Assembly: GCA_037144045.1 (NCBI GenBank)
Contig: JBAWXN010000003.1
Span: forward strand, 7,696-71,695
DNA length: 64,000 nt
Origin: a bacterium
Lineage (GTDB): Bacteria; Patescibacteriota; Minisyncoccia; Phycocordibacterales; UBA1006
Direction of reading: 5' to 3'
Every line of letters begins with the position of its first letter. The stretch's first letter is position 1. The translations under genes were made by a program, and so were the position numbers. Below are positions 30,848 to 53,213 of this stretch, piece after piece. Below the pieces are notes generated by a model. That model ran no database searches. It saw nothing but the letters and a program-made list of their open reading frames with translations, and was not told the DNA's origin.

Positions 30848-30851
30848 AGGG

Positions 30852-33116
30852 TTAATCGTCTCCTTCTTCTGAAGCTACTCGTTCAGCAATATCGTGATTT
30901 GAATAGGTAGGGGTCATGACTTCTCGAGGTTTAGCTCCGTCGGCCGGCCCGACAATGCCTCGTTCTTCTAATAGATCAATGAGGCGGGCCGCCCGCGAAT
31001 ACCCAACTTTCAACTTGCGTTGAATATAACTCGTGGACGCTTTACCTGCTTCCATAACTACTGCTTTAGCGTCTTCGTAGAGCTCGTCCTCATCGTCATC
31101 ATCAACTGATGAAGAAGAAATCGAACGATCGTCATCGATAGTTTCACCAAGGCTAATTTCGTCAGGAAGGGAATTGTTGTGCTTCTTAATAAATGATACC
31201 ACAGCTTTCACTTGGTCTTCACCTACGTTGGCACATTGCATACGTTCCGGCTTTGACATTCCTTCTCCTTGATAGAGCATGTCTCCTTTTCCGAGGAGTG
31301 ATTCAGCACCTGGAGCATCCAAAATAGTACGTGAGTCAATTTGTGATGCCACCTGAAGGGCGAGTCGTGAAGGAATGTTTGCTTTAATAAGTCCTGTAAT
31401 AACGTTTACCGATGGTCGCTGGGTTGAAAGTACGAGGTGAATACCAACGGCACGTGACATTTGCGCAAGGCGTACGATTCCTGATTCGAGTTCTCGAGGA
31501 TACGCCTGCATAATGTCCGCCAATTCATCGATAAATACTACAATGTACGGCATACGTTCTGGTGCTTTAGGATCGTCAGCAGGTACTTTTCCTGAACTTG
31601 CTTTAGCTAAATAAGGTTCAAGGATGTTTTTGTGGTACGACTGAATGTCTCGACATGTATGACTTTCAAGCAGGTCATAGCGTCGCTCCATTTCTTTGGC
31701 AGCCCATTTGAGTGCCAAGATTGCCTTTTTAGGTTCTTTGATAACTGGGGTCAATAGGTGAGGGATGTCGTTATAGAGGGTAAGTTCTACTCGTTTAGGG
31801 TCCACCATAATTAATCGTAGGTCTTCTGGTCCATTTCGATAAATCAATGAAAGGATCATATTATGTACTGTTACTGACTTACCTGAACCCGTGGTTCCTG
31901 CGATCAAGAGATGGGGCATTTTTGCTAAGTTGGCAAAATGTGACTTCCCAGTAACTCCTTTTCCGAGGGCGATAAGGAGCCTGTCGGGTGAATTCTCGAA
32001 GAGTTCTTCCTCGAGCAATGTTCCGAGTCCAACACTTGATTTGATACGGTTAGGGATTTCAATACCTACTAATGATTTACCAGGAATAGGGGCTTCAATA
32101 CGAATAGGGTGGGCAGCAAGTGCAAGTGCAAGGTCAGATTTAAGTGCCACAATACGGGCTAATTTGATTCCTTCTGCAGGCTTTAAGGCGTAGCGAGTAA
32201 CGGTCGGACCGATTGAAACTTCGTCCATTTCAACATCGATTCCGAAGTTAAGGAGGGTACGTTTAATTAAGTTTGCGTTCGCTTTGATGTCGCCTACCGA
32301 TGGTTTACCTGATGATTTATTAAGAAGGTCAGTAGGAGGGTATTCGTAGGTTTCAGACATGAGTGCAGATCCTGACATCACGATTTCTTCTTCGGGTTCT
32401 GGTTGAGGTTTTGAGACAGCCTTAGTGAATTTTTCAACAAGCGATGGTTTTTCTTCTTCGTCCTCATCTTCTTCTATTTCTATAATTGCTTCGTCTTCAT
32501 CGGCAAGTTCATCAAGGAGGATAGATTCACCAAACTCAACTGAGTCGGCAGACTGAACAGGTTCTTTTTTTGAAAAGAGGGTATGCAAGAAAGAGGGAAT
32601 ACGAAGTTCTTCGTTCAGGAGAACCATTACTGAAATGAGTGATAACGCACCGAGGATAATGGCAGCTGCATACACGTCAAAAATACCCACCATAACGTTT
32701 GCGATACCATATCCGACCAATCCACCACCACGTAGTGAAGGGGTAATAATTTGGATAAATCCAAGAGCTGAAAACCCAAGCAGGGTAGCACTAATATATT
32801 CAAGGATGGTCCAAGGATTTGGATAGCCACGGAATAGATGAATCGCATAGACAATAATCATTACTGGAATAAGCACAACGCCGAATCCAAAGAGTGCCTC
32901 AAATACAGTGTGGTACAAAAAATTACCTGCGACTCCAGCCACTCCAAAAGCACCCAGAATAATAATAAGCGCGATTACTAAGAGTATGATGGCAATAATG
33001 GAATATTTGATTTTTGGATCTAATGAAAAAGCGTCAGAACCAGTGATAAGGTCCTTAGAATTTTTTACAGATTCCGAGTTGGTACGAGACGCTTTTTTGA
33101 TATCTTTTTTAGCCAT
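30852..33116 (-). CDS. ftsK: DNA translocase FtsK/SpoIIIE
   Basis: N-terminal TM helices. Motor domain with Walker A AGTTGSGKS. C-terminal winged-helix gamma domain (SYIQRKLKVGYSRAARLIDLLE). Confidence 0.9.
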   Translation of the reverse strand: MAKKDIKKASRTNSESVKNSKDLITGSDAFSLDPKIKYSIIAIILLVIALIIILGAFGVAGVAGNFLYHTVFEALFGFGVVLIPVMIIVYAIHLFRGYPNPWTILEYISATLLGFSALGFIQIITPSLRGGGLVGYGIANVMVGIFDVYAAAIILGALSLISVMVLLNEELRIPSFLHTLFSKKEPVQSADSVEFGESILLDELADEDEAIIEIEEDEDEEEKPSLVEKFTKAVSKPQPEPEEEIVMSGSALMSETYEYPPTDLLNKSSGKPSVGDIKANANLIKRTLLNFGIDVEMDEVSIGPTVTRYALKPAEGIKLARIVALKSDLALALAAHPIRIEAPIPGKSLVGIEIPNRIKSSVGLGTLLEEELFENSPDRLLIALGKGVTGKSHFANLAKMPHLLIAGTTGSGKSVTVHNMILSLIYRNGPEDLRLIMVDPKRVELTLYNDIPHLLTPVIKEPKKAILALKWAAKEMERRYDLLESHTCRDIQSYHKNILEPYLAKASSGKVPADDPKAPERMPYIVVFIDELADIMQAYPRELESGIVRLAQMSRAVGIHLVLSTQRPSVNVITGLIKANIPSRLALQVASQIDSRTILDAPGAESLLGKGDMLYQGEGMSKPERMQCANVGEDQVKAVVSFIKKHNNSLPDEISLGETIDDDRSISSSSVDDDDEDELYEDAKAVVMEAGKASTSYIQRKLKVGYSRAARLIDLLEERGIVGPADGAKPREVMTPTYSNHDIAERVASEEGDD

Positions 33117-33239
33117 GAAGTACCCCTAGTATACCAAGAAAAAGCTTTATAATACAAGGGTAAAAAAGAAATTTGCATTAACGACACAATCAGTATAGTA
33201 TAGAAACTACATCCGAGACGGTGATGATATTAAAGACAT

Positions 33240-34136
33240 ATGAAAGGTCAAAACGACGTATCAAAACGACATGAAGAGGAAGGGTCTCAACCATTAAACG
33301 ACATTCGAAAAGAAGTCTTGTTTTATAATGATATTTTTACTAATCCTCTAGAAAAGTCTTTTTTTGTTTATTCTCGCAAGATCGAGAAGATTGTCACAGC
33401 GCTCTACCTGGTTACCGATGTTATGGATGGGGAACTGCCGTTGACTCGATCGCTAAGGTCCGAATCACTTGACCTCCTAAATGCGTGTTATCAAATTCTT
33501 ACTAGTACTGGAAAACTAGCACCCATTGAGATGACTCGAATATTGGTTCGACTCGAACACGTAACTTCACTTATTTCAATTGGAAGGATTGCACATCATA
33601 TTTCAGAAATGAATGCACAGGTCCTCATTGGGGAGCTCCAAAAAGTAACACACTTGATTGCCTTAGACACCCAAGAACTTACTCAGAAATACACTTCATA
33701 CCTCTACCCAAGAAATCATGGTGTCGAAACAGTTCAACCAGTCGTGTCACATGCAACTCTAGATGATGCCTCATTTGAAGAACTCGAGAAGACTAAAAAG
33801 CGACAAGGAGTTACAGGTAGACCAGTAAACGACATTAAAACGACATTAACGACATTCACATCAGAAGCTAAGAAATCAAGTGAACACAAAAAAGACATTG
33901 GTAATACTGTTGCAACAGTCAAAACGACATATAAAATAAGTGGAGGTGATCCTGATAGAAAACAGAGTATTCTCAACGTCATTAAATCGCATAAGAATGC
34001 ATCTATGCAGGACATTCAAAAGTTTGTTACTGGGTGCAGTGATAAGACACTCCAGCGTGAACTCGTGAGCCTCATTGCTTCTGGGCAGATTCGTAAGATA
34101 GGGGACAAGCGATGGGCAACGTATCATGTCGTTTAA
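33240..34136 (+). CDS. hypothetical protein with C-terminal winged-helix-like segment
   Basis: 298 aa. C-terminus SMQDIQKFVTGCSDKTLQRELVSLIASGQIRKIGDKRWATY resembles a wHTH. Confidence 0.4.
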   Translation: MKGQNDVSKRHEEEGSQPLNDIRKEVLFYNDIFTNPLEKSFFVYSRKIEKIVTALYLVTDVMDGELPLTRSLRSESLDLLNACYQILTSTGKLAPIEMTRILVRLEHVTSLISIGRIAHHISEMNAQVLIGELQKVTHLIALDTQELTQKYTSYLYPRNHGVETVQPVVSHATLDDASFEELEKTKKRQGVTGRPVNDIKTTLTTFTSEAKKSSEHKKDIGNTVATVKTTYKISGGDPDRKQSILNVIKSHKNASMQDIQKFVTGCSDKTLQRELVSLIASGQIRKIGDKRWATYHVV

Positions 34137-34162
34137 CCTCTCCCGGTCAGCTGCGCTGACCA

Positions 34163-34239
34163 CCCTCTCCTGATAAGGAGAGGGTCAGAGAAATCATGAT
34201 GTTTGGGAAAATTTTATCCTTCCCCTGATAAGGGGAGGG
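34163..34239 (+). repeat. pair of paralogous hairpins with identical TGATAA loops
   Basis: CCCTCTCC-TGATAA-GGAGAGGG (34163-34184) and CCTTCCCC-TGATAA-GGGGAGGG (34218-34239). Further hairpins flank them at 34145-34161, 34246-34262 and 34284-34316. Confidence 0.5.
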
Positions 34240-34818
34240 TGAATCCCGAAGGGGGACGGGAGGGGTATTTGACAAAAAGTCTAAAAATTACCTAATTTTT
34301 ATTAGGTAATTTTTTTGGTTGTGATTCGTCATCATTGATAGAAACAGAGTTGCGTGGATTTAAAGACACGCTATAATGTTTTCACTCCATAGAACATCAT
34401 AAATAAATGGGTGTGGATAAGTACTAATCTGCTTGCCTTGCCTAGCTCGTTTGTGGTACTATGGTTCCGTGCTTGTGAATTTGTAAGACGGTTCGTAATC
34501 GAGTTACAACATTCTCGGAATCATTCATTGTTAACTCAATAGACATTTTTTTATTTATTTTGTTAACAGCAAAATCTTTCTCGTCTTAACAGAACACACC
34601 ACTTATCTGTGTAGAATGCTATTCAAATAGTATTCTTCATATATATGTGGTGTGTTCTCACCGACGGGTGAGATACACTCCACATATTCTTTACAGAATA
34701 TTGTAGAGATAATAAACAGTACACAATATGGTCTACCACTTAATAAGTCGACGGTAGATCGTGTACGAATCTTTTCTGGCTTAATTACCAGAAAGGATAA
34801 TTGAAATTAATTTTAATT

Positions 34819-36717
34819 ATGCAAAAGAAATTTTTCGCAGTAGCTACATTTGCACTTGCTTTCGCAGTTGCATTTTCAGCTAGTGCATATGATCTCGGTT
34901 CAACAACATTGAAACGAGGATCAACAGGTGCAGCAGTTGTTGAACTCCAAAAAGCTTTGAACGAAAAGAACGGAGCTGGACTTGCAACTGATGGATCTTT
35001 CGGACGAGGAACAGAATCAGCAGTTAAAGCTTTCCAAGCTTCAAAAAACTTGGGAGCTGACGGTAAAGCTGGAGCGTTAACAAAGGCAGCTTTGAACGCT
35101 TCTACTTCTACTACAACTACTACAACATCAACAGCAGGACTTTGTCCAAACGGAATGACACTTGCATCAAACTGCACAATGTCTCCTTCAACATCATGGG
35201 GGTCTTCTTCTTCAGCAGAAGGATACCTAGCTGATATTGCTTCAGATTCATCAAACCTTGTTTCAACAGTTTACGAATCTGAACAAGACAAAGTTGTTAA
35301 CGGATTCCGTGCAACAGCTCGATTGGCAGACCAGAAGATTGAAAAAGTTACTGTAACATTGTTACAGACAAACGGATCAGCTTCAGTTAACCTTGCTAAA
35401 TACGCTTCAAGTGTTTCACTTTGGAACGGATCTACAAAGTTAGCAACTATGTCAGTTGCTAATGCAGACCGATCAACTTCAACAGATCTTTACACATTCA
35501 ACTTTACAGGATTGAGTTCAATCATTGCTAAAGATACAGCTGGACGATTCTACGTTTCAATCAATGCAAACGGAGCTCTCGATTCAGTTGATGCAACTAA
35601 CGCTACATGGGTTGGTAAAATCACAGAAGTTCGTGCAACATCTCCAAACGGTGTTTACGTAACAACAAATGGTTCACCATTCCCACTTTCTAAGACATTT
35701 GGATTTGGTAAGTTCTCAGCTAACGGAGTTAAGGCAGAAGTTGCACTTGCATCTTCAAACCCAACTTCACAAACTGTAACAGTTAGTGAAACATCTAACA
35801 CTAATGACAAAACTCTTTTGAAGTTCAAGATTACTGCTAAAAACACTTCTCTTACACTTCGAAAAGTTGGAATCAAGATCACTTCATCAGGAGCTGACCT
35901 TGAAGACATCATTAACACAGTTAAACTTTACCGAGACGCTACACAACTTGATAACAAATCAGGTGACGTAGTTGCGGCTTCAGCTATGGGGACATATGTA
36001 TTTGACAACCTTTCAGGAACATCAATTGCATCAGGTTCTTCAGCTGAATTCTCAGTTTCTGTAGATCTTAAGAAGCAAGTAGGAAACTACACTTCTGGAG
36101 TTGCGCTTACAGCTGAATTTACAGATTTGACAAGTACAAACTTCTCAGTTCAAGATGCTAACGGTGATCAACTACAAGCTGGATCAACATACCGATCTGG
36201 ATCAGCAGTTGGATCAGCTATGACTCTTCGAACAAAGGGAGTTTCAGCTACAGCTGGATCAGCTACAGCACCAGTTTCTTCTATTGGTAACTCTTCAACA
36301 CAACAAGTTACATTCTCATTCCCATTGAATTTGATTGGATCTGGTGTTGATTACTATGTTCCAAAAGCAGCTCAATTGGTGACTACTGGTGCATCTATGC
36401 CAGGATCTGCAACAGCTTCTAAGGGTATCTACTTTGCTATCCAGAACCTTACAAGTAACGCATTCCTTTCATCTGCAGCAGCTAACGTTGATTCATCAGC
36501 AACTGTTTATGGTACAAACCCAGAACAATTGCTAGCTTCAAACACTGGTACAAATGCAACATTGAAAGTTACAATCAACGGAAACGGAACAGCAGCTTAC
36601 TACAAGCTTTATGTTCTTGGATTCGCTGGAGCTGAATCTTTGAATGGAACATTGTCTACATACGCTGTTGACAATGCATCTGCATTCACAGTTACTTCAA
36701 ACGGAGCAGTTCAATAA
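34819..36717 (+). CDS. secreted cell-surface protein: signal peptide + peptidoglycan-binding domain + long Ser/Thr-rich beta region (candidate S-layer protein)
   Basis: Signal peptide MQKKFFAVATFALAFAVAFSASA|YD. The PG_binding_1-like repeat is LKRGSTGAAVVELQKALNEKNG...TDGSFGRGTESAVKAFQ. Poly-Thr linker. Codon usage is strikingly different from neighbouring genes (almost only A/T-ending codons gca/tca/aca/gtt/gct), typical of a very highly expressed gene. Confidence 0.6.
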   Translation: MQKKFFAVATFALAFAVAFSASAYDLGSTTLKRGSTGAAVVELQKALNEKNGAGLATDGSFGRGTESAVKAFQASKNLGADGKAGALTKAALNASTSTTTTTTSTAGLCPNGMTLASNCTMSPSTSWGSSSSAEGYLADIASDSSNLVSTVYESEQDKVVNGFRATARLADQKIEKVTVTLLQTNGSASVNLAKYASSVSLWNGSTKLATMSVANADRSTSTDLYTFNFTGLSSIIAKDTAGRFYVSINANGALDSVDATNATWVGKITEVRATSPNGVYVTTNGSPFPLSKTFGFGKFSANGVKAEVALASSNPTSQTVTVSETSNTNDKTLLKFKITAKNTSLTLRKVGIKITSSGADLEDIINTVKLYRDATQLDNKSGDVVAASAMGTYVFDNLSGTSIASGSSAEFSVSVDLKKQVGNYTSGVALTAEFTDLTSTNFSVQDANGDQLQAGSTYRSGSAVGSAMTLRTKGVSATAGSATAPVSSIGNSSTQQVTFSFPLNLIGSGVDYYVPKAAQLVTTGASMPGSATASKGIYFAIQNLTSNAFLSSAAANVDSSATVYGTNPEQLLASNTGTNATLKVTINGNGTAAYYKLYVLGFAGAESLNGTLSTYAVDNASAFTVTSNGAVQ

Positions 36718-36741: not shown

Positions 36742-36770
36742 CAAAAAACCCCGCAAGGGGTTTTTTGTTT
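36742..36770 (+). terminator. strong intrinsic terminator
   Basis: AAAAAACCCCGC-aa-GGGGTTTTTTGTTTTT. Confidence 0.8.
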
Positions 36771-36798
36771 TTCCAAATATTTTCTATATAATGCCTGT

Positions 36799-38898
36799 AT
36801 GGCACAACAAAAAATAACACAGAAATTGGATACGTCTTCGACGGTTTTAGAAAAAATAATACAGTGGGGAATGATAGTGATGCTGGCACTTATGCCGTTA
36901 CTGTATTCAAATGGGCGCATAGCATCAGCGGTGACCTCAAAACAGTTTTTTATAATAGGATGTATCGACTTATTGGTCATTGTTTGGGTATGGTTACTTA
37001 CTACTGATAGTCGGTATCGAATTACTGTTAAAAACGCGATATGGTTCATACCTGCGACGTTGTTTGTAAGTTCAATGACAGTAAGTACCTTTATAGGGGT
37101 TGATTTTTATACTTCATTTCTATCAACTATTGAACGAGGGGGTGGATTGTTGTTTATTTTGCACCTATATTTATTTGCACTTATGATCGCATCAGTGGTG
37201 CGAGCAAGGGGAATGGTGTTTATAAAATCATTGTTTCAGGCAATACTGTTCTCTGCGGTAGGTGTCGCAATACTCACTTTTTTCACCCGTGAAGCATTCG
37301 ATATCGGTGTTGAATGGCTCAATGAAAGTGTGGGAGGTGCAACACTAGGGAATTCAACTATTGCCGGTTCTTATTTTGTATTCGCATTATTCGGTGCATT
37401 ATTCCTGTGGATATCAGAAACTAAAGTATGGAAAAAAATACTCTATGGAATCGGTTTATTAATAATAGGAACATCACCAATAGTATTTAACGTTAAGGGT
37501 TTTTTCATAACAAAGACCGCTTGGGCAGAGGTATTCCACAACCCATTAGTAATCATTGGTCAGGCACGGGCAGCGGTAGTATCTATTATTATCGGTCTTA
37601 TTATTGCTGTATTGGTTTATATCGTTGCAACACATCAGAAGAAGATAGTGAAAGGATTAGCATTAGCAGGGGTTGTAGTAATCCTTCTTGGAATTGGTTA
37701 TTCAGGGTATCAGGTGTTACAGGACGGTTCACGTGTCCAACAGCTATTTATGGATAAAGTAGGTCAAAACCGTATTACTTTTTGGCACGAAGCGTTTGCA
37801 GGAATTCGCGAACGTCCATGGCTTGGATGGGGACCCGAAAACTTTAAAGTAGTACATCAAAAATATCTTGATCCAATCCTTGCAGGACCTGCTCGGAATG
37901 CAGAAATTTGGGTAGATAAACCCCATAATGCCCTTATTGAAACAGTAGTGACTCAAGGGTATATTGGACTTATTGCATACATTATTTTCATTAGTGCCTT
38001 ATTTACCTGTGTTGTACGGTTAATGTATCTACGGGTCCTTGAACCTAAATACGGCGCAGTTTTTATTGGATTGTTGACTGCTTATCTGTTGCAGAATCAA
38101 TTTGCATTTGACTCCATTATTTCACTGGTGTGTTTATGGTTACTGGTTGGTATCGTGTTAGGATATACTGATCAAACAGATACAAATCGAAAACCAATTG
38201 TTCCAGGTGTGATTATAAAAGGAATGGCTGCAATTATAACAGTGGCATGCATTGTGGTGTGGGTCTTTGCAGCGTATTTCCCATCACGAAAAATGATCGT
38301 CGCTAAAGAAGTATTTGATAGTCCTATGAATGTTCGACCCGAACAGTATGCTGATTTATTTACAGGACATGGGTCGTTGCAGTTTACTACTAATTTAGGA
38401 ATGATGGTGTATACCCTTGCAGAATCATATTTGGCACAGCGTGCGGTAATTATGCAAAGTCCTCAATTGGTTGATGCAGCTTCGCATGAGGTGGACATGC
38501 TCCTTGACGCAATGGATTCTGTTGACTCCTATTCAGGGAAAGATTATAGATTTAAGGCTGCAGCTGCGATTTTTCAAGAAACTCAAGTAGCTATTACCCA
38601 GAAACTGGACGCAAAGCGGGTAGAGCGTATGAATCGCTATGCACAGGAAGCAATTGCTCTTTCGCCGACAAATCCATTTGGGTACATGATATATAGTAAA
38701 ATATTACTCTATACTCAAAATATATCAGAAGCGCGAGTCATGATTGATAAGGCAATAGCTCTTAATCCTACGATTAAAGAGGCACATTTACAAAAAATTG
38801 CTTTTGAGCAAGCGTATGGTAATAGATCACAACAGCAGGCAGCAATTGCAGACCTTGCTCGATATTTTCCTGAAAGTGTAGACATGTATCGTAAATAA
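36799..38898 (+). CDS. O-antigen ligase/polymerase-like (Wzy_C) polytopic membrane protein with C-terminal TPR-like domain
   Basis: 699 aa, more than 10 TM. Wzy_C-type loop WVDKPHNALIETVVTQGYIGL. Soluble alpha-helical C-terminal repeats. -10 TATAAT lies 6 nt before the ATG. Confidence 0.7.
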   Translation: MAQQKITQKLDTSSTVLEKIIQWGMIVMLALMPLLYSNGRIASAVTSKQFFIIGCIDLLVIVWVWLLTTDSRYRITVKNAIWFIPATLFVSSMTVSTFIGVDFYTSFLSTIERGGGLLFILHLYLFALMIASVVRARGMVFIKSLFQAILFSAVGVAILTFFTREAFDIGVEWLNESVGGATLGNSTIAGSYFVFALFGALFLWISETKVWKKILYGIGLLIIGTSPIVFNVKGFFITKTAWAEVFHNPLVIIGQARAAVVSIIIGLIIAVLVYIVATHQKKIVKGLALAGVVVILLGIGYSGYQVLQDGSRVQQLFMDKVGQNRITFWHEAFAGIRERPWLGWGPENFKVVHQKYLDPILAGPARNAEIWVDKPHNALIETVVTQGYIGLIAYIIFISALFTCVVRLMYLRVLEPKYGAVFIGLLTAYLLQNQFAFDSIISLVCLWLLVGIVLGYTDQTDTNRKPIVPGVIIKGMAAIITVACIVVWVFAAYFPSRKMIVAKEVFDSPMNVRPEQYADLFTGHGSLQFTTNLGMMVYTLAESYLAQRAVIMQSPQLVDAASHEVDMLLDAMDSVDSYSGKDYRFKAAAAIFQETQVAITQKLDAKRVERMNRYAQEAIALSPTNPFGYMIYSKILLYTQNISEARVMIDKAIALNPTIKEAHLQKIAFEQAYGNRSQQQAAIADLARYFPESVDMYRK

Positions 38899-38902
38899 GG
38901 TA

Positions 38903-38928
38903 AAAACCTCGCGAAAGCGGGGTTTTTG
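38903..38928 (+). terminator. intrinsic terminator
   Basis: AACCTCGC-gaaa-GCGGGGTTTTTG. Confidence 0.55.
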
Positions 38929-38954
38929 TATGGTTGTTTGCTATACTGAATCAT

Positions 38955-40814
38955 ATGAAAGAACGAATTTTGAGATATGTTAGGTCAATTCCTCGTGCAA
39001 TCCTAGGGGGTATTATTGGCGCAACTATTTTAGGAAGTGTGTTATTTACTACCACAGGAATTGTTTATAACTATATCAATTCTAAGGTACTGTTCATTCA
39101 AATTGGGTGTACTCTTATTATCGCATTAGGAATACTTATTGTTTCTTGGAAAGACGTCTGGTTATTCATTAAAAAAACACCCCTAGTACAAGCAATGCTT
39201 GGTTTTTTAGGGGTAACAGTCGTTGCGACAATGCTTGGACTTGATCCGGCATTGTCGTTTTATGGGCACTTTGAACGAGGGACTGGGTTATTATTAACAC
39301 TTCTTACCATGATTGCTTCGTTGAGTGCGGTACTTATTACAAGTCGCTTTTCGTTAGTTCGACAGGCGATCTTATATCCGTTGGCATTAGCTGGAGGGCT
39401 TTTAGGTGTTACTACTTGGATAGGACTTACTGGCTTTAATATGCACTATTGGTATATCCTTGGTAAATCATCCGGGGGCGGGGGAACACTAGGAAATTCA
39501 TCATTTGCGGGAACAGTGTTCATGATGACGTTCTTCATTACATTATATTTATTTTGCACTGCTTCATCTCTTAAAAAGAGACTTGCATTGTTAGTTATAG
39601 GTTTCTTTACATTAGTTAATCCGGTCATAATTTCACTTTCGTATTTTAAACCTCTCGCTGGAACCGTATTTGGGTTTATTGGTGATGCTCGAGGCGCGAC
39701 TCTTTCGATAGTCCTTGGATTAATTGTGTTCATGAGCTTTTTAGCAACAACGAATCGGTACAAAGCAGTTCGTGTTGCTGGGTGGTCTACGATAGGGATT
39801 ACGATCGCAGGGATTTTGATTGGAATGGTGATGTTGGCAACACCAGGTAATAAGGTACACGATTTCTTTGTTAAAACATCTGGCGCAGCACGATTCATGT
39901 ACTGGAATATGGCGCTCAAGCAAACCAAAGACCATTTGTTTTTGGGTACAGGACCAGAAACATTTCGGTATGCTCATGAAAAATATTTCGATACACGACT
40001 ACTTGCGCTCGGTGAACCATGGGCAGATAAGCCCCATAATAGCTATGTTGAAATAGTGATGTCGCTTGGGGTGCTCGGTTTAGCAATGTATATCATTATG
40101 ATTGGAAGTATTATTTGGCTGGTACTTCAACTGCGTCATAATTCAAAGCATACTTTCTTCATTGCAACCGTGCTTGGTTTTTTAACGGCGTATTTGGTAA
40201 ACAATAGTATTTTGTTTGACACGATGACCAGTACGTTATTATTTTTCATGATATTGGCATGGATTGCTTGGTATTGGTACAACGCACAATCTTATGAAAA
40301 GACGGTGGATAATCGAGGAGTTGTAGAATGGGGAACACGTATTGTGTTGGTAATTTTAGTAATAGTTCCTCTGTATGGAATCATCCATGGTGAAGCTATT
40401 AAACTCAGCACGGTCTGGAAAGAACTGTTTACAGAACCTCCGGCACGCATGGAACTCTATCAAGCAGGAGAGCTCGCTTCGCCCTATGGTGCTGGAATTT
40501 CATTTGCACAACGCGCTGATGATTACGGACAACGATATATGACCAATACTAAAATCCCTAAAGATGTCGCAATTAAAGACATTGAAGCGATTAATGCGAC
40601 ACTTATTGATACCATGTCGAAATATCCCGCAAACACCCAAAGTTACATAGCGCTCGGTAATTTAGCACTTGCACACATTATCCAATCAGGTACTGCAAGT
40701 CCATTATGGATTCAAGAACTTAAACTTGCGGAACAAGGAGTGACGTTATTATCGCCACAAAATCCTCGCGCTGCTTATTTTAAACAACAGGTAACTTTGT
40801 ATGAAAAAAAATAG
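38955..40814 (+). CDS. O-antigen ligase-like (Wzy_C) membrane protein with C-terminal TPR-like domain, paralog of the upstream gene
   Basis: Same architecture, with WADKPHNSYVEIVMSLGVLGL loop motif. Start taken at ATG 38955, 7 nt after -10 TATACT. Confidence 0.7.
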   Translation: MKERILRYVRSIPRAILGGIIGATILGSVLFTTTGIVYNYINSKVLFIQIGCTLIIALGILIVSWKDVWLFIKKTPLVQAMLGFLGVTVVATMLGLDPALSFYGHFERGTGLLLTLLTMIASLSAVLITSRFSLVRQAILYPLALAGGLLGVTTWIGLTGFNMHYWYILGKSSGGGGTLGNSSFAGTVFMMTFFITLYLFCTASSLKKRLALLVIGFFTLVNPVIISLSYFKPLAGTVFGFIGDARGATLSIVLGLIVFMSFLATTNRYKAVRVAGWSTIGITIAGILIGMVMLATPGNKVHDFFVKTSGAARFMYWNMALKQTKDHLFLGTGPETFRYAHEKYFDTRLLALGEPWADKPHNSYVEIVMSLGVLGLAMYIIMIGSIIWLVLQLRHNSKHTFFIATVLGFLTAYLVNNSILFDTMTSTLLFFMILAWIAWYWYNAQSYEKTVDNRGVVEWGTRIVLVILVIVPLYGIIHGEAIKLSTVWKELFTEPPARMELYQAGELASPYGAGISFAQRADDYGQRYMTNTKIPKDVAIKDIEAINATLIDTMSKYPANTQSYIALGNLALAHIIQSGTASPLWIQELKLAEQGVTLLSPQNPRAAYFKQQVTLYEKK

Positions 40815-41628
40815 TTCAACGGTAAGTGTTATTATTCCAACTTATAATTCTGCTGCAACCCTCATGCGGGCTCTTGATAGTGTACTCGGTCAAACCTATA
40901 AACCACTTGAAATAATTGTCGTAGATGACGGTTCCACTGATGACACTAAAAAAATCTTAGAGTCATACATAAGTAATAGTTCTATTACTTATGTATATCA
41001 ACAGAATGCTGGTTGTGGGCGTGCGCGAAATAATGGAATAACTTTGGCTCAAGGGGAATATATTGCACTCCTCGACGCCGATGATTTTTGGCATACTGAA
41101 AAGCTCGCTCGACAGATTGAAGTATTTAAAAATCATCCAGACACATTAGTGTGTTATACAGAAAGCTATATTGTGGATCCGTATCATAAGATTATTTGGG
41201 ATTTAGTACGAACGATTCGTACACGGCCAAGGTCAGGATGGATTGCAAAATATTTTGTTATTAACAATATGGTACTTCCTTCAAGTACTCTTATTCCTAA
41301 AAGTGCCTTGATTGCCGTAGGGGGATTTTGTGAACAGTATAATTTGATGATGGTGGCTGATCTTGATATGTGGCTGAAATTAGCTTCTCGTGGGAAGTTT
41401 TACGCATGTAATACGCCGCTTACGTTTTATCAAACACGAGCACGTATTACCCAGGCTCAAATTAAAGAAAACCATCGTCAAGTACGAGAAGTGTTCAAGA
41501 GGGCGTTAATTCACGAATCATGGTCAGTGAAAGGATGGTATTTCCTTGGTTATGTAAAATCTTGGCTATTGTATCTAGTTCAGTCAATTAAGCTCGTGAA
41601 CACAATTAAGCAAAAAATGATAAAATAA
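40801..41628 (+). CDS. family 2 glycosyltransferase
   Basis: VSVIIPTYNSAATL...IIVVDDGSTDDT...LDADD, the GT-A DxD signature. Confidence 0.85.
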   Translation: MKKNSSTVSVIIPTYNSAATLMRALDSVLGQTYKPLEIIVVDDGSTDDTKKILESYISNSSITYVYQQNAGCGRARNNGITLAQGEYIALLDADDFWHTEKLARQIEVFKNHPDTLVCYTESYIVDPYHKIIWDLVRTIRTRPRSGWIAKYFVINNMVLPSSTLIPKSALIAVGGFCEQYNLMMVADLDMWLKLASRGKFYACNTPLTFYQTRARITQAQIKENHRQVREVFKRALIHESWSVKGWYFLGYVKSWLLYLVQSIKLVNTIKQKMIK

Positions 41629-41632
41629 AACC

Positions 41633-42721
41633 ATGATTACTGTTACGATACTTACCACAACTCATGCATCAACAGGTGGCGTAGAGCGCTTTGTAAGCTA
41701 TTTGGAAAAAGAGCTTATTTTGCATGAATGTGCAGTGACCATAATTGCAAAACAAGATTTACGTCCTTGGCAACAGAAAATAATTGGACTCGCAAAATAT
41801 GTAGCAAGTGATCAAATAGTACTAGGGTATTTTTTAGGGTGTGTAGCTATGCGAGGTACTAGTGATGTAGTTATTACTAATGGACTCCTCGGGTGGAATA
41901 TTCGTAATAAAAAAGTTATTAATGTTCATCATGGTACGTTTATCAAAGGTGCGCTGCGTACTCGACACGACGATGTATGGATTAAATACATTATTAAACG
42001 TTACTGGTGGTCGTGGTTTGAGCAAAAAGCGGCTCGTGGTGCAACGGTATGTGCTGCAGTTTCAGAAGAAACACGACAGTCAGTGATGCACTATTACCGC
42101 GCAAAAAACGTGGTTACTATTCCTAATGCTATCGATACCGATTTATTTGTGCCCAACACTCAAGAAGTGGCACGAAAAAGTTTAGGACTTCCATTAGATA
42201 AGAAAATAGTGTTCTTCGCGAGCCGTCTTGGATCGCAGAAAGCAGGGCAATTAGTACTGGCAATTGCTCAGCATATTAAAAAAACACGTCCTAATGTAAT
42301 AGTAGTAGGTGCAGTATTTGGACAACAGTTTTCACAAGAATCAGGTATTATTGGGCTCGATAATGGTTCGTATGATCGATTGGTGATGGCGTATAATGCG
42401 GCAGATGTATTTTTGCTTCCATCACGCCATGAAGGATCGTCGCTTGCACTGCTTGAATCAATGGCATGTGGACTACCTTTTTTAGCAAGTCCTGTCGGGT
42501 TAGTACCAGAACTCCTTGAGAAAAAATTATTTACCGAATGTATTGTGAGTGAACCAACTGTTGATGCTTATATGAATCATTTGAATAAACTCCTTGGGTT
42601 GTCGACTGACGATCAAATAATACTTGCACAACAACTCCGAACATATGTGGTTGAACATCATAATTTACAGCAGTTCGGAAATAATTATTTTTCACTCATT
42701 AAAACTATTACATCACTATGA
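41633..42721 (+). CDS. family 4 (GT-B) glycosyltransferase
   Basis: C-terminal LLPSRHEGSSLALLESMACGLPFLASPVG, the GT4 EX7E-type motif. Confidence 0.8.
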   Translation: MITVTILTTTHASTGGVERFVSYLEKELILHECAVTIIAKQDLRPWQQKIIGLAKYVASDQIVLGYFLGCVAMRGTSDVVITNGLLGWNIRNKKVINVHHGTFIKGALRTRHDDVWIKYIIKRYWWSWFEQKAARGATVCAAVSEETRQSVMHYYRAKNVVTIPNAIDTDLFVPNTQEVARKSLGLPLDKKIVFFASRLGSQKAGQLVLAIAQHIKKTRPNVIVVGAVFGQQFSQESGIIGLDNGSYDRLVMAYNAADVFLLPSRHEGSSLALLESMACGLPFLASPVGLVPELLEKKLFTECIVSEPTVDAYMNHLNKLLGLSTDDQIILAQQLRTYVVEHHNLQQFGNNYFSLIKTITSL

Positions 42722-43602
42722 TTGACGTTATTATGCCAACTTATAATCGCGCACAAGCCCTTACGAAAGTAATGGATTCTTACCTGTCGCAAGATTTCCT
42801 TGGGAAAATTATTTTCGTAGATGATTGCAGTACGGATACCACTACAGAATATGTGGCAGGACTTGCACAACAATATCCTGGTAAAATTGTGTATCATCGC
42901 ATGGATAAAAAATCTACATTACCTAATATTCGTAATGTAGGTATTCACCTTGCGACCAACGATTATATTTTTATGGGCGAAGACGACGTGTATTTACCTG
43001 AAGGTCATTTTAAAATCCTTCTTGAAAAAATGAATGAATACCAGGCTGACCTTATTTCAGGACGACGGGTAAACATGTTTGCGGATCAAGACCAAGTGCT
43101 GGCTAAAAAACTGGCAGACTTGGATCATCGTCCGGTGTTTGTAAACGTTCCATTCGAGGCATATTTTGAACGAGTAGTTGATAAGGCTCAATCAGTAAAT
43201 CGATTGCATTCAAATATGCTCATGAAACGCTCAGTATTCGATAAAGTACAATACGATCCGTGGTATGGAGGAAACGCATTTCGAGAAGAAACAGACTTTT
43301 TTCTACGAGTCTGGGATGCTGGATTCACACTGTGGCTTATTCCAGATACCTTGTCATATCATATGAAAAACACTGCAGTAAACCAGACTGGGGGATCACG
43401 AAAAAAACGATGGGTCTACGAATGGCAAGTTTGGAAAAACACTGCGCATTTATTTATAAAAAACAAAAAAATATTTACTGAAAAATTACATTCGGGCAAT
43501 ATTTATTGGTATTTAGTACGTTGTTTAATTGCTCGATATACCTACGGACTTTTTAGATTTATTGAACAACAGATTCATAGAAAAAAATATGCACAAACGT
43601 AA
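42718..43602 (+). CDS. family 2 glycosyltransferase
   Basis: IDVIMPTYNRAQAL...IIFVDDCSTDTT...GEDD. ATGA overlap with the upstream gene. Confidence 0.8.
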   Translation: MIDVIMPTYNRAQALTKVMDSYLSQDFLGKIIFVDDCSTDTTTEYVAGLAQQYPGKIVYHRMDKKSTLPNIRNVGIHLATNDYIFMGEDDVYLPEGHFKILLEKMNEYQADLISGRRVNMFADQDQVLAKKLADLDHRPVFVNVPFEAYFERVVDKAQSVNRLHSNMLMKRSVFDKVQYDPWYGGNAFREETDFFLRVWDAGFTLWLIPDTLSYHMKNTAVNQTGGSRKKRWVYEWQVWKNTAHLFIKNKKIFTEKLHSGNIYWYLVRCLIARYTYGLFRFIEQQIHRKKYAQT

Positions 43603-44809
43603 AGTACTTGTCGCGTTGTTCCGGTTGCCGTATCCAGCAACTGATGGAACACGATTTAAAATTCTCCATAACCTCGTATCAGGCCTTAAAAAAGAATTTG
43701 AGGTGGAGTTTTTTGTGGTGAATATTAAATCGTACACCCAATCTGATATTGACCATTTGGAGCAAAATTATGGAAAGGTGCACGTGTTCCATAGATCGAA
43801 ATTAGCGTATCTGTTTAATGCGTTTCCTGCGCTATACAACGGATTACCGCTTCAGGCCCAAGCGTTTCACTTTAAGGGTGCACAAAAATGGCTTGATGTG
43901 CATATTGACGATTATGATGCGGTATATATTCACGAGATTCGTATGACTGAATTTTTTATTAATTATTCAGATGTACAGAAGCAGAAATTCTTGGTTGATT
44001 TCAACGACGCTATTTCTATGAACTATCAAGCAGGAGTTCAGAAAATGAATGTCTTTAAAAAGTTATTTTATACCTGGGAAGGGAATCGGGTTGCGCGCTA
44101 TGAATCACAAGTGCTTACCACGTTTAACCATTTCAGTATTGTTTCGGAGGTAGATAAAAAATATCTACTCAATGCGCCAGCGTATCATGGTTCTAAAAAT
44201 CTTGATTTTTCAGTAGTAAATCACGGAGCTCCTATTCCGAGCGAGGTTGCAACCTGTGACCAACATAAAATATTTTTTATGGGTAGTTTGGATTACGAAC
44301 CAAATCGTGATGCGGTGCGCTACTTGATTGAAACTATCTGGCCTCAACTGAGTGTAAAAATTCCTGAAGTAGAACTCGTTATTATTGGTGGGGGAACTAT
44401 TCCTGAATCGTATAAGCATATTCCAAGAATTATTTTTTCTGGATTCGTACCCAATGTCTTCGAAGTGGTGCGTCATTGTAAAGCGTTGGTTGCCCCTATT
44501 CGATTTGCGGGAGGGACTCCTTCAAAAATTATTGAAGCAATGGGGTATGGTATTCCAGTAGTAACAACACCACAAGGCGCCGCGGGTATTTCTGGAATCG
44601 AACCAGGCAACAACATTATTACTGTTTCAGAACAGGATGTGGATGCTTGGGTAGAAATCATTAACAAATTAATACAGGATTCGAACTATTTGAATGCTAT
44701 TGCTCGCAAGGGGAGACTATTAGTAGAAGAACGGTATTCCCAGCAAGCCGCCGAACAAGTATTCTGTAATCGCTTAAAAGAAGTCGCTGACAGTATTCAT
44801 ACTCTATAA
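43589..44809 (+). CDS. family 4 (GT-B) glycosyltransferase
   Basis: GGTPSKIIEAMGYGIPVVTTPQGAAGI C-terminal nucleotide-sugar binding motif. Start taken at ATG 43589 (MHKRKVLV), overlapping the upstream stop. Confidence 0.8.
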   Translation: MHKRKVLVALFRLPYPATDGTRFKILHNLVSGLKKEFEVEFFVVNIKSYTQSDIDHLEQNYGKVHVFHRSKLAYLFNAFPALYNGLPLQAQAFHFKGAQKWLDVHIDDYDAVYIHEIRMTEFFINYSDVQKQKFLVDFNDAISMNYQAGVQKMNVFKKLFYTWEGNRVARYESQVLTTFNHFSIVSEVDKKYLLNAPAYHGSKNLDFSVVNHGAPIPSEVATCDQHKIFFMGSLDYEPNRDAVRYLIETIWPQLSVKIPEVELVIIGGGTIPESYKHIPRIIFSGFVPNVFEVVRHCKALVAPIRFAGGTPSKIIEAMGYGIPVVTTPQGAAGISGIEPGNNIITVSEQDVDAWVEIINKLIQDSNYLNAIARKGRLLVEERYSQQAAEQVFCNRLKEVADSIHTL

Positions 44810-44814
44810 CTAAT

Positions 44815-45495
44815 ATGGAATTCCTCACTCAAACAAAACAATATATCCGTAATCAGTTTCCAAGTCTTTTTACTGTTTTAAAAAAGCTGCGTAATGTTCC
44901 TGGGTTGGCGCACATGAATGCATTAGCGTCACCGATTACGGAACGATTTGATGCTTCAAAAGAAGACGATGCGTATTTTAAAAAATACATGGATGAAGTA
45001 ATTCGTACTATTAATTCATTACCGCATGCAGGTGAACTGCTTGATATTGGGTGCGGCCATGGATTCGCAACACAGATGCTCGCGGAACTGCCTCGAGTTA
45101 CTAACGTGGTTGCACTGGATAAAGTACCGCGTGATTACTTTCACTATCTCGATAATCCAAAAATTACTTTTTATTCAGAAGACATTACTTCATTCGATTT
45201 TTCACCATGGGTAGATCGCTTTGATGCGGTCGTGAGTACAGAATTTGTTGAACATATTTCTGAACATGATGGGGAAGTGTTAGTACAAAACGTGTTTAAG
45301 GTAGTAAAACCAGGAGGATATTTTATTGGTTCTACACCGCTTAATCCGACTCAAGATAATCTCTTTACTCATAATCCATTTCATATTCGTGAATATCAGC
45401 CAAGTGTATTCAAGAAAATACTTGAACAGGTTGGATTTCGCACTATTGTAATTAAGGAGCTTGGTGATTGTTTTGTTTGGATAGCACAAAAATAA
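44815..45495 (+). CDS. class I SAM-dependent methyltransferase
   Basis: Motif I LLDIGCGHGFAT and motif II-like VVKPGGYFIGSTP. Confidence 0.8.
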   Translation: MEFLTQTKQYIRNQFPSLFTVLKKLRNVPGLAHMNALASPITERFDASKEDDAYFKKYMDEVIRTINSLPHAGELLDIGCGHGFATQMLAELPRVTNVVALDKVPRDYFHYLDNPKITFYSEDITSFDFSPWVDRFDAVVSTEFVEHISEHDGEVLVQNVFKVVKPGGYFIGSTPLNPTQDNLFTHNPFHIREYQPSVFKKILEQVGFRTIVIKELGDCFVWIAQK

Positions 45496-45503
45496 TCGTA
45501 TAT

Positions 45504-45532
45504 ACAAAATCGCCCTACGGGGCGACTTTGTA
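45504..45532. terminator. bidirectional intrinsic terminator
   Basis: AAAATCGCCC-tac-GGGGCGACTTT between convergent genes. Confidence 0.55.
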
Positions 45533-46801
45533 TTAATTACGAAATAGATGGTTTCGTAATTTGAATCCAGTAATTAAGGTAATAGTGGTGAGTCCAACAA
45601 CACTTGCAATAGCGGCGCCAACACCTTGGTAATGAGGAATCAAGAGTACGTCAAGTGCAATATTTACGACAACGCCTACAATGTTTGCGATAACAAATTG
45701 TTTTTGTTTGTCGAGCGCGAGAACGACGTTGTTGAGAATACTCAAGATAAATACAGGAATATAAGACAGTGCAAGAATGGTCAGAATAGGTGCGCCTACT
45801 ACGAATGAATAACCAAAAAGAATATTCATGATCGGTACTGACCCAAGAATCATAATGGTCATCAATGGAACCGCTAGAACCAACATGAGTATGAGCGATT
45901 TTCTAATAGCGCTCATGATATCTGATTGGTCTTGTGTTTTTTGTACGAGTGTCGGGAAGGTACTTGTTGCAAATAGTGATGCAAGAATATAAAACATTTG
46001 AACAATACGACTCGCAGCAGCATAGAGTCCCACATCAGTAGTGGTTCCGTAATATCCTAAAAATAAGGTATCAGTATTAAAAATGAGTACGTTTGATATT
46101 GCAAGTACGGTAAACGGCCATGCAGCAAAGAATATTTCGTTGAGCAGTTTTCGAGAAAACGTTTTACGAATATTGGGAAGGTAGTTACGAATAACAAAAA
46201 ACATAATACTCGTCCCGATAAAGCTCCCTAATGCATATCCCCAAGCTAGTGAAAGTGGGGTAGGTGATACCATCATAAAGCTAATCCCAAAAATTACTAT
46301 CAAGGTATTGGTAATAATTTGGACTTTCGCGTCGACATGCATACGTTGTTCAGCACGGGTAATAGAGAAGAAGAGCGCGCGCAGTGCATCACAAAACATA
46401 AGGAACGCAATTACGGGAATGATGACTCGTGACGCAGGAATAGTGCTTACCAATGGGCCAATACCAATAAAAAATAGTAATGCAACAACACCGAGTATTA
46501 TTTTTAATACGAGTGCGGTTCCAAAAATAATATGTTTATCGTGTTCATTTTTTGCAAAGCTACGGGTTACAAATGTGGCAATACCTGCGTCTTCAAAAAA
46601 AGTAAGGAATCCTCCAAGTGCGATGGCGTAACTAAAAACCCCAAGTCCGGAAACGCCGAGCATGCGGGCTGCAACAATTCCAAGACCTCCACGCGCGATG
46701 CGGCTTCCTATTTCAGCAAGAGACAGCCAAATAGTGTTACGGAGTATAGTTTTTTTGGTGGTACTCACGTTTGAGAGAAATTCTCGAGTCTTTTGAATCA
46801 T
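45533..46801 (-). CDS. Wzx-type polysaccharide/oligosaccharide flippase (MOP superfamily)
   Basis: About 12-14 TM helices, length ~420 aa, organisation typical of Wzx. Start set at the internal ATG (MIQKTREF), since the ORF track begins with an upstream TTG. Confidence 0.7.
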   Translation of the reverse strand: MIQKTREFLSNVSTTKKTILRNTIWLSLAEIGSRIARGGLGIVAARMLGVSGLGVFSYAIALGGFLTFFEDAGIATFVTRSFAKNEHDKHIIFGTALVLKIILGVVALLFFIGIGPLVSTIPASRVIIPVIAFLMFCDALRALFFSITRAEQRMHVDAKVQIITNTLIVIFGISFMMVSPTPLSLAWGYALGSFIGTSIMFFVIRNYLPNIRKTFSRKLLNEIFFAAWPFTVLAISNVLIFNTDTLFLGYYGTTTDVGLYAAASRIVQMFYILASLFATSTFPTLVQKTQDQSDIMSAIRKSLILMLVLAVPLMTIMILGSVPIMNILFGYSFVVGAPILTILALSYIPVFILSILNNVVLALDKQKQFVIANIVGVVVNIALDVLLIPHYQGVGAAIASVVGLTTITLITGFKLRNHLFRN

Positions 46802-46922
46802 ATGATGTATTGTACTTATTTTACGTATATTTTCCAAGGAATTATTTATAGTTACTTGAATAGTTCTTATATATTTCTTGAGGGCTCATTTGGTTTACTA
46901 GGGGAAACTAAAAATAAAATAT

Positions 46923-47522
46923 ATGAAACAAAAATTAATCGACAACATTATTTCGGTAATATTGGTAATTATTTTCCAGTGTACTCTGTGGTGTGTAACT
47001 CATGCGCAAGGGGTTGGTATTGGAACTGCAAACCCTCAAGCAAAGTTACATGTTGCCGGCACGGTACGTATTGATACTGCGACACGAGTAACAACCACGA
47101 AAGACCTTGCAACACTAGATTCGCTCGGGGTAGTGCACCGTTTTTCTATTGATTCAATTAAAAAACAAACAGCCCAAACGTTCTATTATCAAGAAGTAAA
47201 CCCAATTGCTACAAATACTTCGGTTGCGTATCAAACGCGCGTAAGTCTGAGTCTGCCACCGGGAACTTATTTATTATGTGCCTATGCTGAAATAATGAAC
47301 TCGGTATATGATGCCGGGGTTCGTATGTGGCTCCTTGAAGGTTCTGTTGATTTGGCGTACGCTATTGCGTATTCAAACACGAGTACGTTTGGGTCATGGT
47401 CCGTATTTAGAATGGTGAGTCCGACAGTAACCACAACGTATGGGCTTGGATATTCTTCATGGCCTGGCAATACTACTTCGTCTATTAGGAGAGCTCGTAT
47501 GTATGCTATTAAATTACAGTAA
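46923..47522 (+). CDS. secreted hypothetical protein with tail-fibre-like GxGIGTxNPxAKLHV motif
   Basis: Signal/TM segment IISVILVIIFQCTLWCVTHA, then QGVGIGTANPQAKLHVAGTVRID. Confidence 0.5.
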   Translation: MKQKLIDNIISVILVIIFQCTLWCVTHAQGVGIGTANPQAKLHVAGTVRIDTATRVTTTKDLATLDSLGVVHRFSIDSIKKQTAQTFYYQEVNPIATNTSVAYQTRVSLSLPPGTYLLCAYAEIMNSVYDAGVRMWLLEGSVDLAYAIAYSNTSTFGSWSVFRMVSPTVTTTYGLGYSSWPGNTTSSIRRARMYAIKLQ

Positions 47523-47559
47523 TTTCAACCCTCTTGCGCAAGCAGGGGGGTTCTTGACT

Positions 47560-52589: not shown

Positions 52590-52635
<46 letters not shown>

Positions 52636-53213
52636 GGAGAGGGGAGTGAAATAGATCTGAAACCCTACGCCTACAAGGAGTCGGAGCGGCAATTTATTGT
52701 CCGTCACGGCGTGCCTATTGAAGAATGAGCCAACGAGTTATAGCATGCGGCAGGCTAAGCGCTTTAAATGCGTGGAGCCACAGCGAAAGCGAGTCTGAAT
52801 AGGGCGAAATTTATGTCGTATGCTATAGACCCGAAGCCAGGTGATCTACCCATGGACAGGTTGAAGTTCCGCGAAAGCGGAATGGAGGACCGAACCAATA
52901 AGCCGTGCAATACTTTTGGATGATCTGTGGGTTGGAGTGAAAAGCTAATCGAACCTGGTAATAGCTGGTTCTCTCCGAAACAGCTTTTGGGCTGGCGTCG
53001 AGCGTTCCCTTTGGGGGTAGAGCACTGGATGGTCTTGACAGGGAGCAATCTCGCAAGACCTACCAAACTCCGAATACCAAAGGCCACAGCTCGGCAGTTA
53101 GACAGTGGGGGCGAAGCTCCACGAGTCAAAACGGAAACAGCCGTAGATCTCAAATTAAGGTCCCTAAATTCATGTTAAGTACACTTAAGGAGGTTAGATT
53201 TCTTCGACAATGA

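Follow-up and report, generated by a model that had tools for sequence, protein, structure and literature searches.

Two tandem Wzy_C membrane proteins at the edge of a hypervariable glycan island in a Patescibacterium: a possible protein O-glycosylation locus

The locus described here lies in a stretch of 64,000 nucleotides (nt) from a bacterium of the Patescibacteriota (GenBank assembly GCA_037144045.1, contig JBAWXN010000003.1, positions 7,696 to 71,695 of the forward strand), which we call the window and from whose first nucleotide all coordinates are counted. The original prediction, made from the letters alone, saw in it a possible O-linked glycosylation system for an adjacent surface protein. 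This protein, here SP, is encoded at 34819–36717 (+ strand; open reading frame, or ORF, start at 34801 or 34819) and is a secreted, cell-wall-binding candidate glycan acceptor with a signal peptide and the Pfam domain PG_binding_1. Next come the genes for two membrane proteins of the WaaL/PglL superfamily, WzyA (36799–38898, +; 699 amino acids, aa; Pfam Wzy_C at 57.0 bits) and its paralog WzyB (38934–40814, +; 626 aa; Wzy_C at 59.5 bits; an alternative ATG at 38955 may be the true start). Four glycosyltransferase genes follow: a TuaG/EpsD-like GT2 (40801–41628, +; Glycos_transf_2, E 6e-38), a GT4 (41633–42721, +; Glycos_transf_1 and Glyco_transf_4), a second GT2 (42718–43602, +; Glycos_transf_2, E 2e-23) and a second GT4 (43589–44809, +; Glyco_trans_1_4, E 3.5e-25). 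The likely start of the last is the ATG at 43589, which overlaps the preceding stop by 14 nt; its longest ORF begins at a TTG at 43529, and its homologs have 406–408 aa. An S-adenosylmethionine-dependent methyltransferase, possibly a glycan O-methylase (44815–45495, +; Methyltransf_23/11/25), then faces a convergent Wzx-type flippase of the MOP family (45533–46801, −; Polysacc_synt, E 7e-29, plus Polysacc_synt_3 and MurJ), whose ORF extends over 45533–46837 and has an ATG at 46801, the end coordinate of the original prediction. The gene list from the two Wzy_C proteins to the flippase is thus as had been predicted. Beyond it lies hyp199 (46923–47522, +), encoding a small Ser/Thr-rich protein of 199 aa, secreted or membrane-anchored, with a hydrophobic N-terminal anchor and no Pfam match. 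Domains were called by Pfam scans of window ORFs of at least 150 aa, and what is said below of the window refers to these 64 kb rather than to the whole genome.

From WzyB through the methyltransferase the genes are tightly packed, with overlaps or gaps of at most 5 nt (−14, +4, −4, −14 and +5 nt). WzyA had been counted in this packed unit; it is in fact set apart from both neighbors by terminator-like hairpins, one directly 3′ of SP (36742–36767, +; 11-bp stem with 5 GC, then a T run) and one 3′ of WzyA itself (38900–38929, +; 13-bp stem, then a T-rich tail). A further hairpin (45510–45525; 6-bp stem with 5 GC pairs) separates the convergent methyltransferase and Wzx genes, and a strong terminator stands 3′ of hyp199 at 47527–47552. 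Just past the SP terminator, a perfect extended −10-like element, TATATAAT, lies 6 nt 5′ of the WzyA ATG (36786–36801), so near to it that a leaderless or near-leaderless WzyA transcript is suggested. Neither WzyA nor WzyB matched an NCBIfam family, and the equivalog resemblances of the glycosyltransferases all fall below the NCBIfam cut-offs, so no sugar specificity can be assigned to them.

As had been predicted, the two Wzy_C proteins are paralogs, related over their full length (26% identity, E 2e-40), and both exceed the Wzy_C gathering score of 31.7 bits; their public annotation is “O-antigen ligase family protein.” Around a conserved histidine both read H-N-x9-G-xx-G, which we take to be a motif characteristic of WaaL. 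Together with two arginines this histidine (R257, R325 and H376 in WzyA numbering) is invariant in 15 aligned sequences comprising WzyA, its homologs and WzyB, and the spacing of 68 and 51 residues matches that of the catalytically important residues of Escherichia coli WaaL (R215/R288/H338) and Neisseria meningitidis PglL (R224/R298/H349; PMC3643930). Single-sequence searches of the PDB with either protein returned weak TPR matches or nothing, and an alignment profile was needed: the family profile matched the cryo-electron microscopy structure of WaaL from Cupriavidus metallidurans (7TPG) at E 1.1e-11. The same structure came first in a Foldseek search (E 7e-6, TM-score 0.61) with the AlphaFold2 (AF2) model of WzyA (pLDDT 83.9, pTM 0.85). 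These comparisons show two sequences of the Wzy_C superfamily (PF04932, IPR007016) with a WaaL-like GT-C fold, a core of 12 transmembrane helices and conserved Arg/Arg/His residues of the catalytic loop, and place WzyA and WzyB among the GT-C enzymes of the WaaL/PglL superfamily. Full-length proteins of the WzyA type form at least 315 clusters at 50% identity (E ≤ 1e-30). A profile of the core matched neither E. coli K-12 WaaL nor the Wzy polymerase WbbH significantly, so ligase and polymerase are not separated in that way.

In the model of WzyA, the 12-helix WaaL-like core is followed by a long 13th helix (residues 470–507) and an all-helical domain of ~190 aa (514–698). The N- and C-termini of WaaL both lie in the cytoplasm. 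Given this, the basic N-terminus of WzyA and its extra helix, the C-terminal domain should lie outside, near the catalytic loop; the 13th helix is thus predicted to put a TPR-like domain on the outer face, on the same side as that loop. Pfam TPR matches to WzyA are all sub-threshold (E 0.003–0.1). The C-terminal profile of five WzyA orthologs, however, matches the consensus TPR at E 2.6e-7, that of the single-copy orthologs described below at 6e-16, and the modeled domain superposes on designed CTPR superhelices with TM-scores of 0.74–0.80 over ~160 columns (Foldseek). By profile and model alike, the TPR-like domain of WzyA is real but divergent. WzyB has the same core and 13th transmembrane helix with a shorter C-terminal domain (~135 aa), in which neither Pfam at E ≤ 10 nor the consensus TPR profile gave a TPR signal. 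C-terminal TPR domains had been predicted for both proteins, and WzyA alone bears this out; as a TPR protein WzyB was rejected, since hhalign of its C-terminus to that of WzyA gave only a marginal match of 36 residues. A C-terminal TPR has been reported for the S-layer O-oligosaccharyltransferase (O-OTase) WsfB and for PglL (PMC2943079).

SP has 630 aa, of which 13.3% are Ser and 12.2% Thr (~26% together). PG_binding_1 occupies aa 42–98 (Pfam E 1e-12), and a linker of ~35 residues follows at ~aa 101–135, with an 11-residue S/T run (STSTTTTTTST...) and a Cys loop. The AF2 model (pLDDT 84) has values below 50 in the linker, indicating disorder, and four Ig-like beta-sandwich domains after it. 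Its Foldseek neighbors are integrin thigh and calf domains, Ig-like domains of PrgB, and MSCRAMM adhesins of staphylococci and streptococci, with no S-layer protein among them. SP had been put forward as a candidate S-layer protein, for which neither domains nor structure gave support; we found PG_binding_1, a disordered linker and Ig-like domains with adhesin- and integrin-like matches instead. The expectation of a Ser/Thr-rich surface protein directly upstream of the Wzy_C genes was well founded, with the terminator-like hairpin intervening before WzyA: SP is confirmed as a Ser/Thr-rich secreted wall protein, and appears to be wall-bound and built of Ig-like domains. It is publicly annotated as “peptidoglycan-binding domain-containing protein.” Homologs aligned over most of its length form ~90 clusters, and the full-length matches that carry a specific taxon name are all from Patescibacteria.

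Within the SP linker (35100–35220, aa 101–140) the Cys loops form repeats of two types, “LCPNGMTLASNC” and “LPAGC(T/A)SxxG(Y/F)SxTTGxPC,” which occur in one to three copies and differ in number and type among the SP homologs of the related loci L006–L016. On its 5′ side SP is preceded by a non-coding gap of 664 bp and by hyp298 (33240–34136), a gene without a Pfam family. Among 47 window ORFs of at least 150 aa, only two encode secreted proteins with at least 20% Ser plus Thr, namely SP and hyp199, which bracket the locus. The latter may be a second acceptor, its membership of the system being uncertain.

The closest relatives of the locus proteins come from metagenome-assembled genomes labeled Magasanikbacteria, Parcubacteria, Nomurabacteria, Paceibacteria or “Patescibacteria group,” so that the host is a Patescibacterium and probably belongs to the Paceibacteria. 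We compared 15 related loci, four from close relatives (L001–L004) and 11 from representative genomes (SP 39–46% identical), the latter found with an SP alignment of 10 closer sequences as query. SP followed by WzyA was found in nine of these, comprising all four close relatives and five representatives, at SP identities down to 41%, and the predicted linkage of a Wzy_C gene to the adjacent Ser/Thr-rich protein thus extends beyond this genome. In L001–L004, SP, WzyA and WzyB keep the same order (WzyA 78–43% and WzyB 45–82% identical), and hyp199 is kept at the distal edge in L001, L002 and L004. In the five representatives a single Wzy_C/TPR gene directly after SP opens the variable region, and it is the ortholog of WzyA (230–280 bits to WzyA vs. 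100–150 to WzyB). The common backbone consists of RecA, a Glucodextranase-B-like membrane protein of 140 aa, FtsK and then, divergently, hyp298, SP, the variable region and rplJ; it is conserved in every locus with flanking sequence, in full in the window (28142–36717), L001 and L006–L016, and from SP to rplJ in L002 and L004 as well.

The sugar genes between these fixed points are a different matter. L001 is otherwise identical and lacks the methyltransferase; in L003 there are additional genes for GT2 enzymes and methyltransferases, and one for a further, short Wzy_C protein. In L004 the cassette is fully replaced by UDP-galactopyranose mutase (GLF), DUF4422, GT8, GT4 and an initiating transferase (Bac_transf), and that of L011 has an epimerase, Wzx, GT4, GT2, GT4 and Bac_transf. 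The cassette of L008 (14246–21737) encodes a GDP-mannose dehydratase, a GDP-fucose-synthase-like epimerase, GT11, three GT2 and GT10, and that of L007 a GT6-family protein (16795–18180); the GDP-fucose genes with GT11 and GT10, and the GT6, point to fucosylated, histo-blood-group-like glycans. Because the backbone is conserved and the sugar genes are unrelated between genomes, we regard the locus as a glycan island that is hypervariable in content but always occupies one site, between SP and rplJ.

The constancy of SP next to such an island bears on one alternative, in which the glycan is a wall ligand that anchors SP, so that adjacency would reflect anchoring and not glycosylation of SP. Proteins with SLH domains attach to secondary cell-wall polymers that are made by genes lying beside S-layer genes, and SP likewise adjoins glycan genes and has a wall-binding domain. 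Its module, however, is PG_binding_1, annotated as peptidoglycan-binding and conserved while the cassettes are hypervariable, and SP is kept where the island is missing, which makes an anchoring role very improbable.

Repeat-unit polymerases are specific to their own cassette and co-vary with it. WzyA and WzyB, by comparison, are kept at 43–82% identity while cassettes are replaced, and at 43–51% across loci with unrelated cassettes; judged by these alignments, the Wzy_C genes are part of the island's conserved edge, outside its variable cassette. The two proteins do not display the cassette co-variation of a Wzy repeat-unit polymerase, no Wzz/PCP partner is encoded in the locus or the window, and their retention across exchanged cassettes is ligase- or OTase-like rather than polymerase-like behavior; WaaL and O-OTases accept many donors (PMC12645811). 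The third Wzy_C protein of L003 (7088–7972, −), by contrast, is short, has no C-terminal domain, sits in the variable cassette and shows no BLAST relationship to WzyA or WzyB, and is a candidate cassette-specific polymerase.

These observations can also be read as a division of labor, in which WzyA, the ancestral and TPR-bearing gene product encoded next to SP, is a protein O-oligosaccharyltransferase and the clade-specific WzyB acts on the lipid-linked glycan, by polymerization or some other processing, to allow attachment of long chains. The WzyA ortholog is the sole Wzy_C protein of single-copy islands, the TPR signature is missing from WzyB, and WzyB is co-packed with the glycosyltransferases while WzyA stands between terminator-like hairpins. 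Yet WzyB is conserved across cassettes to the same degree as WzyA (45–50% vs. 43–51% in L003 and L004), which would not be expected of a repeat-unit-specific polymerase, and it shares with WzyA both the Arg/Arg/His residues and H-N-x9-G-xx-G. We consider such a division improbable.

In more distant lineages the contexts of Wzy_C/TPR homologs are mixed. In two of them (L017/18 and L019/20) a Wzy_C/TPR homolog lies downstream of secreted proteins homologous to each other, of 1221 and 1249 aa and with 21–25% Ser plus Thr. Another (L021) follows a pair of secreted Ser/Thr-rich proteins, of which one has PG_binding_1; a further homolog (L024) is beside such a protein, and in L005 it is two to four genes downstream of such proteins. 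In five of seven distant contexts, then, an unrelated secreted Ser/Thr-rich protein is encoded within four genes, mostly directly upstream, of the Wzy_C/TPR homolog. Set against a rough background of 2 in 47 window ORFs, this enrichment is suggestive. Linkage of enzyme genes to substrate genes is documented for O-OTases (PMC3643930, PMC12645811), and PglL-type enzymes prefer disordered acceptor regions (PMC12645811).

We read the locus tentatively, and with slightly less than even confidence, as a pathway by which a monoderm-type Patescibacterium makes a lipid-linked surface glycan and exports it through Wzx, and for which protein O-glycosylation is the best but unproven interpretation. The Bac_transf genes of L004, L011 and L021 support the lipid-linked route. 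Synthesis of lipopolysaccharide (LPS) is not known from Patescibacteria. In agreement with the predicted lack of an obvious LPS context, lpx, kdt and waa genes were all missing from the Pfam results for the window. The same scans found no Wzz/PCP chain-length regulator, LCP ligase or exporter in locus or window, and (with NCBIfam) no ABC exporter in the locus. A protein acceptor is favored by these absences of an LPS pathway, PCP, LCP and exporter, by the external TPR, which suits recruitment, and by the substrate linkage common among O-OTases and the preference of PglL-type enzymes for disorder.

Several results weigh against this interpretation. No initiating phosphoglycosyltransferase (Bac_transf or MraY/WecA-type) was found in the locus or the window. 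SP is a transcription unit of its own, with a strong terminator-like hairpin; 6 of the 11 representative genomes have SP but not the island, rplJ following SP almost directly in them, and the nine SP-linked loci share one ancestral position and are not independent events. S/T runs in the SP linker have 9–11 residues in the three closest two-paralog genomes, 3 in L003 and at most 5 where the island is missing, which in these sequences amounts to a weak trend confounded by phylogeny. Two distant homologs (L025 and L026) lie amid housekeeping neighbors only, and WzyB, as described above, is without a TPR signal. PglL_A (PF15864) and Wzy_C_2 (PF11846) were undetected by Pfam at E ≤ 10 in WzyA, WzyB and two single-copy orthologs, so that neither protein falls in the PglL/PglS class of O-OTases, which is marked by the co-occurrence of these two domains with Wzy_C (PMC12645811). 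The supposed O-OTase affinity of the Wzy_C proteins hence holds at the level of the WaaL/PglL superfamily (7TPG, Arg/Arg/His) and fails for the class markers, and Wzy_C with a WaaL fold alone cannot tell OTase, ligase and polymerase apart (PMC12645811).

Of these points, the missing PglL markers, the loss of the island beside SP in 6 of 11 genomes and the ambiguity of Wzy_C would also suit a non-protein glycan, which we think possible although doubtful. The product would be a capsule, exopolysaccharide (EPS), secondary wall polymer or lipoglycan, polymerized by one Wzy_C protein from repeat units that Wzx has flipped and ligated by the other to a lipid or wall acceptor, with the TPR as a polysaccharide-handling scaffold, on the model of Wzy and WaaL in O-antigen synthesis or of TuaE in teichuronic acid synthesis. 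Glycosyltransferases, Wzx and two Wzy_C proteins are the classic Wzx/Wzy gene set, and the best NCBIfam resemblances of the GT2 and GT4 enzymes, all sub-threshold, are to teichuronic-acid and EPS enzymes. Against it stand the lack of a Wzz/PCP protein, LCP ligase or exporter and of a lipid A-core pathway within the window, and the constancy of WzyA and WzyB over unrelated cassettes, the short Wzy_C of L003 fitting the role of polymerase better. Moreover, a single Wzy_C/TPR gene is the rule in the islands of other Paceibacteria, and the family profile matches WaaL, though the PDB has no Wzy structure for comparison. Should O-glycosylation prove the wrong reading, this would be an ordinary Wzx-dependent surface polysaccharide locus.

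By analogy, a protein O-glycosylation system of this kind would work most like the S-layer glycosylation loci of Gram-positive bacteria (WsaB, WsfB) and the O-OTase systems of Gram-negative ones. The S-layer O-OTases WsfB and WsaB, of the slg loci of Paenibacillus alvei and Geobacillus stearothermophilus, are compared here by their description only: they are polytopic Wzy_C enzymes of monoderms, encoded with glycosyltransferases, with methyltransferase activity present, and their target is a wall-associated surface protein; WsfB has a C-terminal TPR, like WzyA, and WsaB is accompanied by a separate TPR protein, WsaA (PMC2943079). The slg glycan of G. stearothermophilus, however, is exported by a Wzm/Wzt ABC transporter and not by Wzx, and here the neighboring SP has PG_binding_1 and Ig-like domains without an SLH domain, the enzymes are two tandem paralogs, and the host is a Patescibacterium.

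PglL and PglS, the general and ComP-specific O-OTases of Neisseria, Acinetobacter and Burkholderia, share the WaaL-like core with Arg/Arg/His, and their periplasm-facing C-terminal part may be compared with the predicted external domain of WzyA; they transfer undecaprenyl-pyrophosphate-linked glycans en bloc with relaxed donor specificity to disordered Ser/Ala-rich acceptor regions, and two OTases can share one genome, as two paralogs do here (PMC3643930, PMC12645811). They differ in having PglL_A and Wzy_C_2, undetected here, and in that the characterized members are all Gram-negative; the window has no pilin gene. TfpO/PilO and TfpM come closer in one respect: their Wzy_C core is accompanied by neither PglL_A nor Wzy_C_2, and the enzyme gene adjoins the substrate gene (PMC12645811). 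They act, however, on the C-terminal Ser/Thr of a type IV pilin, whereas here the substrate would be a wall protein of 630 aa; since no type IV pilin N-terminal motif occurs in any frame of the window, WzyA and WzyB are not assigned to the TfpO/TfpM class. WaaL of C. metallidurans (7TPG) is the best match of profile and fold, with a 12-helix GT-C core and the histidine in H-N-x9-G-xx-G, and is likewise conserved irrespective of the glycan cassette. It lacks the 13th helix and the TPR, and its acceptor is lipid A-core, for whose pathway the window has no genes.

If protein O-glycosylation is the correct interpretation, an initiating phosphoglycosyltransferase encoded elsewhere would prime undecaprenyl phosphate, on which the two GT2 and two GT4 enzymes would build a short heteroglycan at the cytoplasmic face, to be modified by the methyltransferase. 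Wzx would flip the lipid-linked glycan to the outer face, where WzyA, and probably WzyB, would detach it en bloc from the pyrophosphate-lipid and attach it to acceptors, recruited in the case of WzyA by its external TPR-like domain. Secreted wall proteins would serve as acceptors through disordered segments rich in Ser and Thr, with the SP linker as first candidate. WzyA and WzyB may serve different acceptors, like the two O-OTases of Acinetobacter, or one of them may be a polymerase. Exchange of cassettes among relatives would allow such an island to generate serotype-like variation of the surface.

Elsewhere in the window, which has ~40% GC, an isoleucyl-tRNA-synthetase-like protein of 1171 aa (7115–10630, +) has a His_Phos_1 insert at aa 527–701 between two tRNA-synt_1 stretches, and a free-standing His_Phos_1 gene lies at 18142–18822 (−). 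An rRNA region at 52061–55989 has a 23S gene of only 2722 nt (vs. a 2925-nt model), followed by a tRNA gene (55111–55181) and, ~1.1 kb downstream, 5S rRNA. The window has no 16S rRNA gene, which suggests unlinked rRNA genes.

Patescibacteria, also known as the candidate phyla radiation, make up a large and mostly uncultivated share of bacterial diversity and live attached to other microbes, and to our knowledge their surface chemistry is almost unknown. Glycosylation in Saccharibacteria was called “unexplored” in a 2024 preprint on their pili (PMC11623550), and we found nothing specific in the literature on protein glycosylation, S-layers or O-antigen ligase/Wzy_C enzymes in Patescibacteria. 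The machinery at this locus is of a known type, and its use in Patescibacteria is plausible and unexplored. If the O-glycosylation reading is right, the SP linker would form a concrete, testable enzyme-substrate pair with WzyA or WzyB, the hypervariable island at its fixed chromosomal site could be used as a “serotype” marker in metagenomes, and O-OTases with new donor and acceptor specificities may be added to those available for bioconjugate work. More broadly, and as a speculation that we consider rather unlikely but worth stating, proteins of the WzyA type (Wzy_C, 13th helix, external TPR) may be an unrecognized, Patescibacteria-wide class of O-oligosaccharyltransferases tied to lineage-specific wall proteins and hypervariable glycan islands, in which case these obligate episymbionts would wear serotype-like coats of glycoprotein and could thereby tune how they attach to hosts and evade phages.

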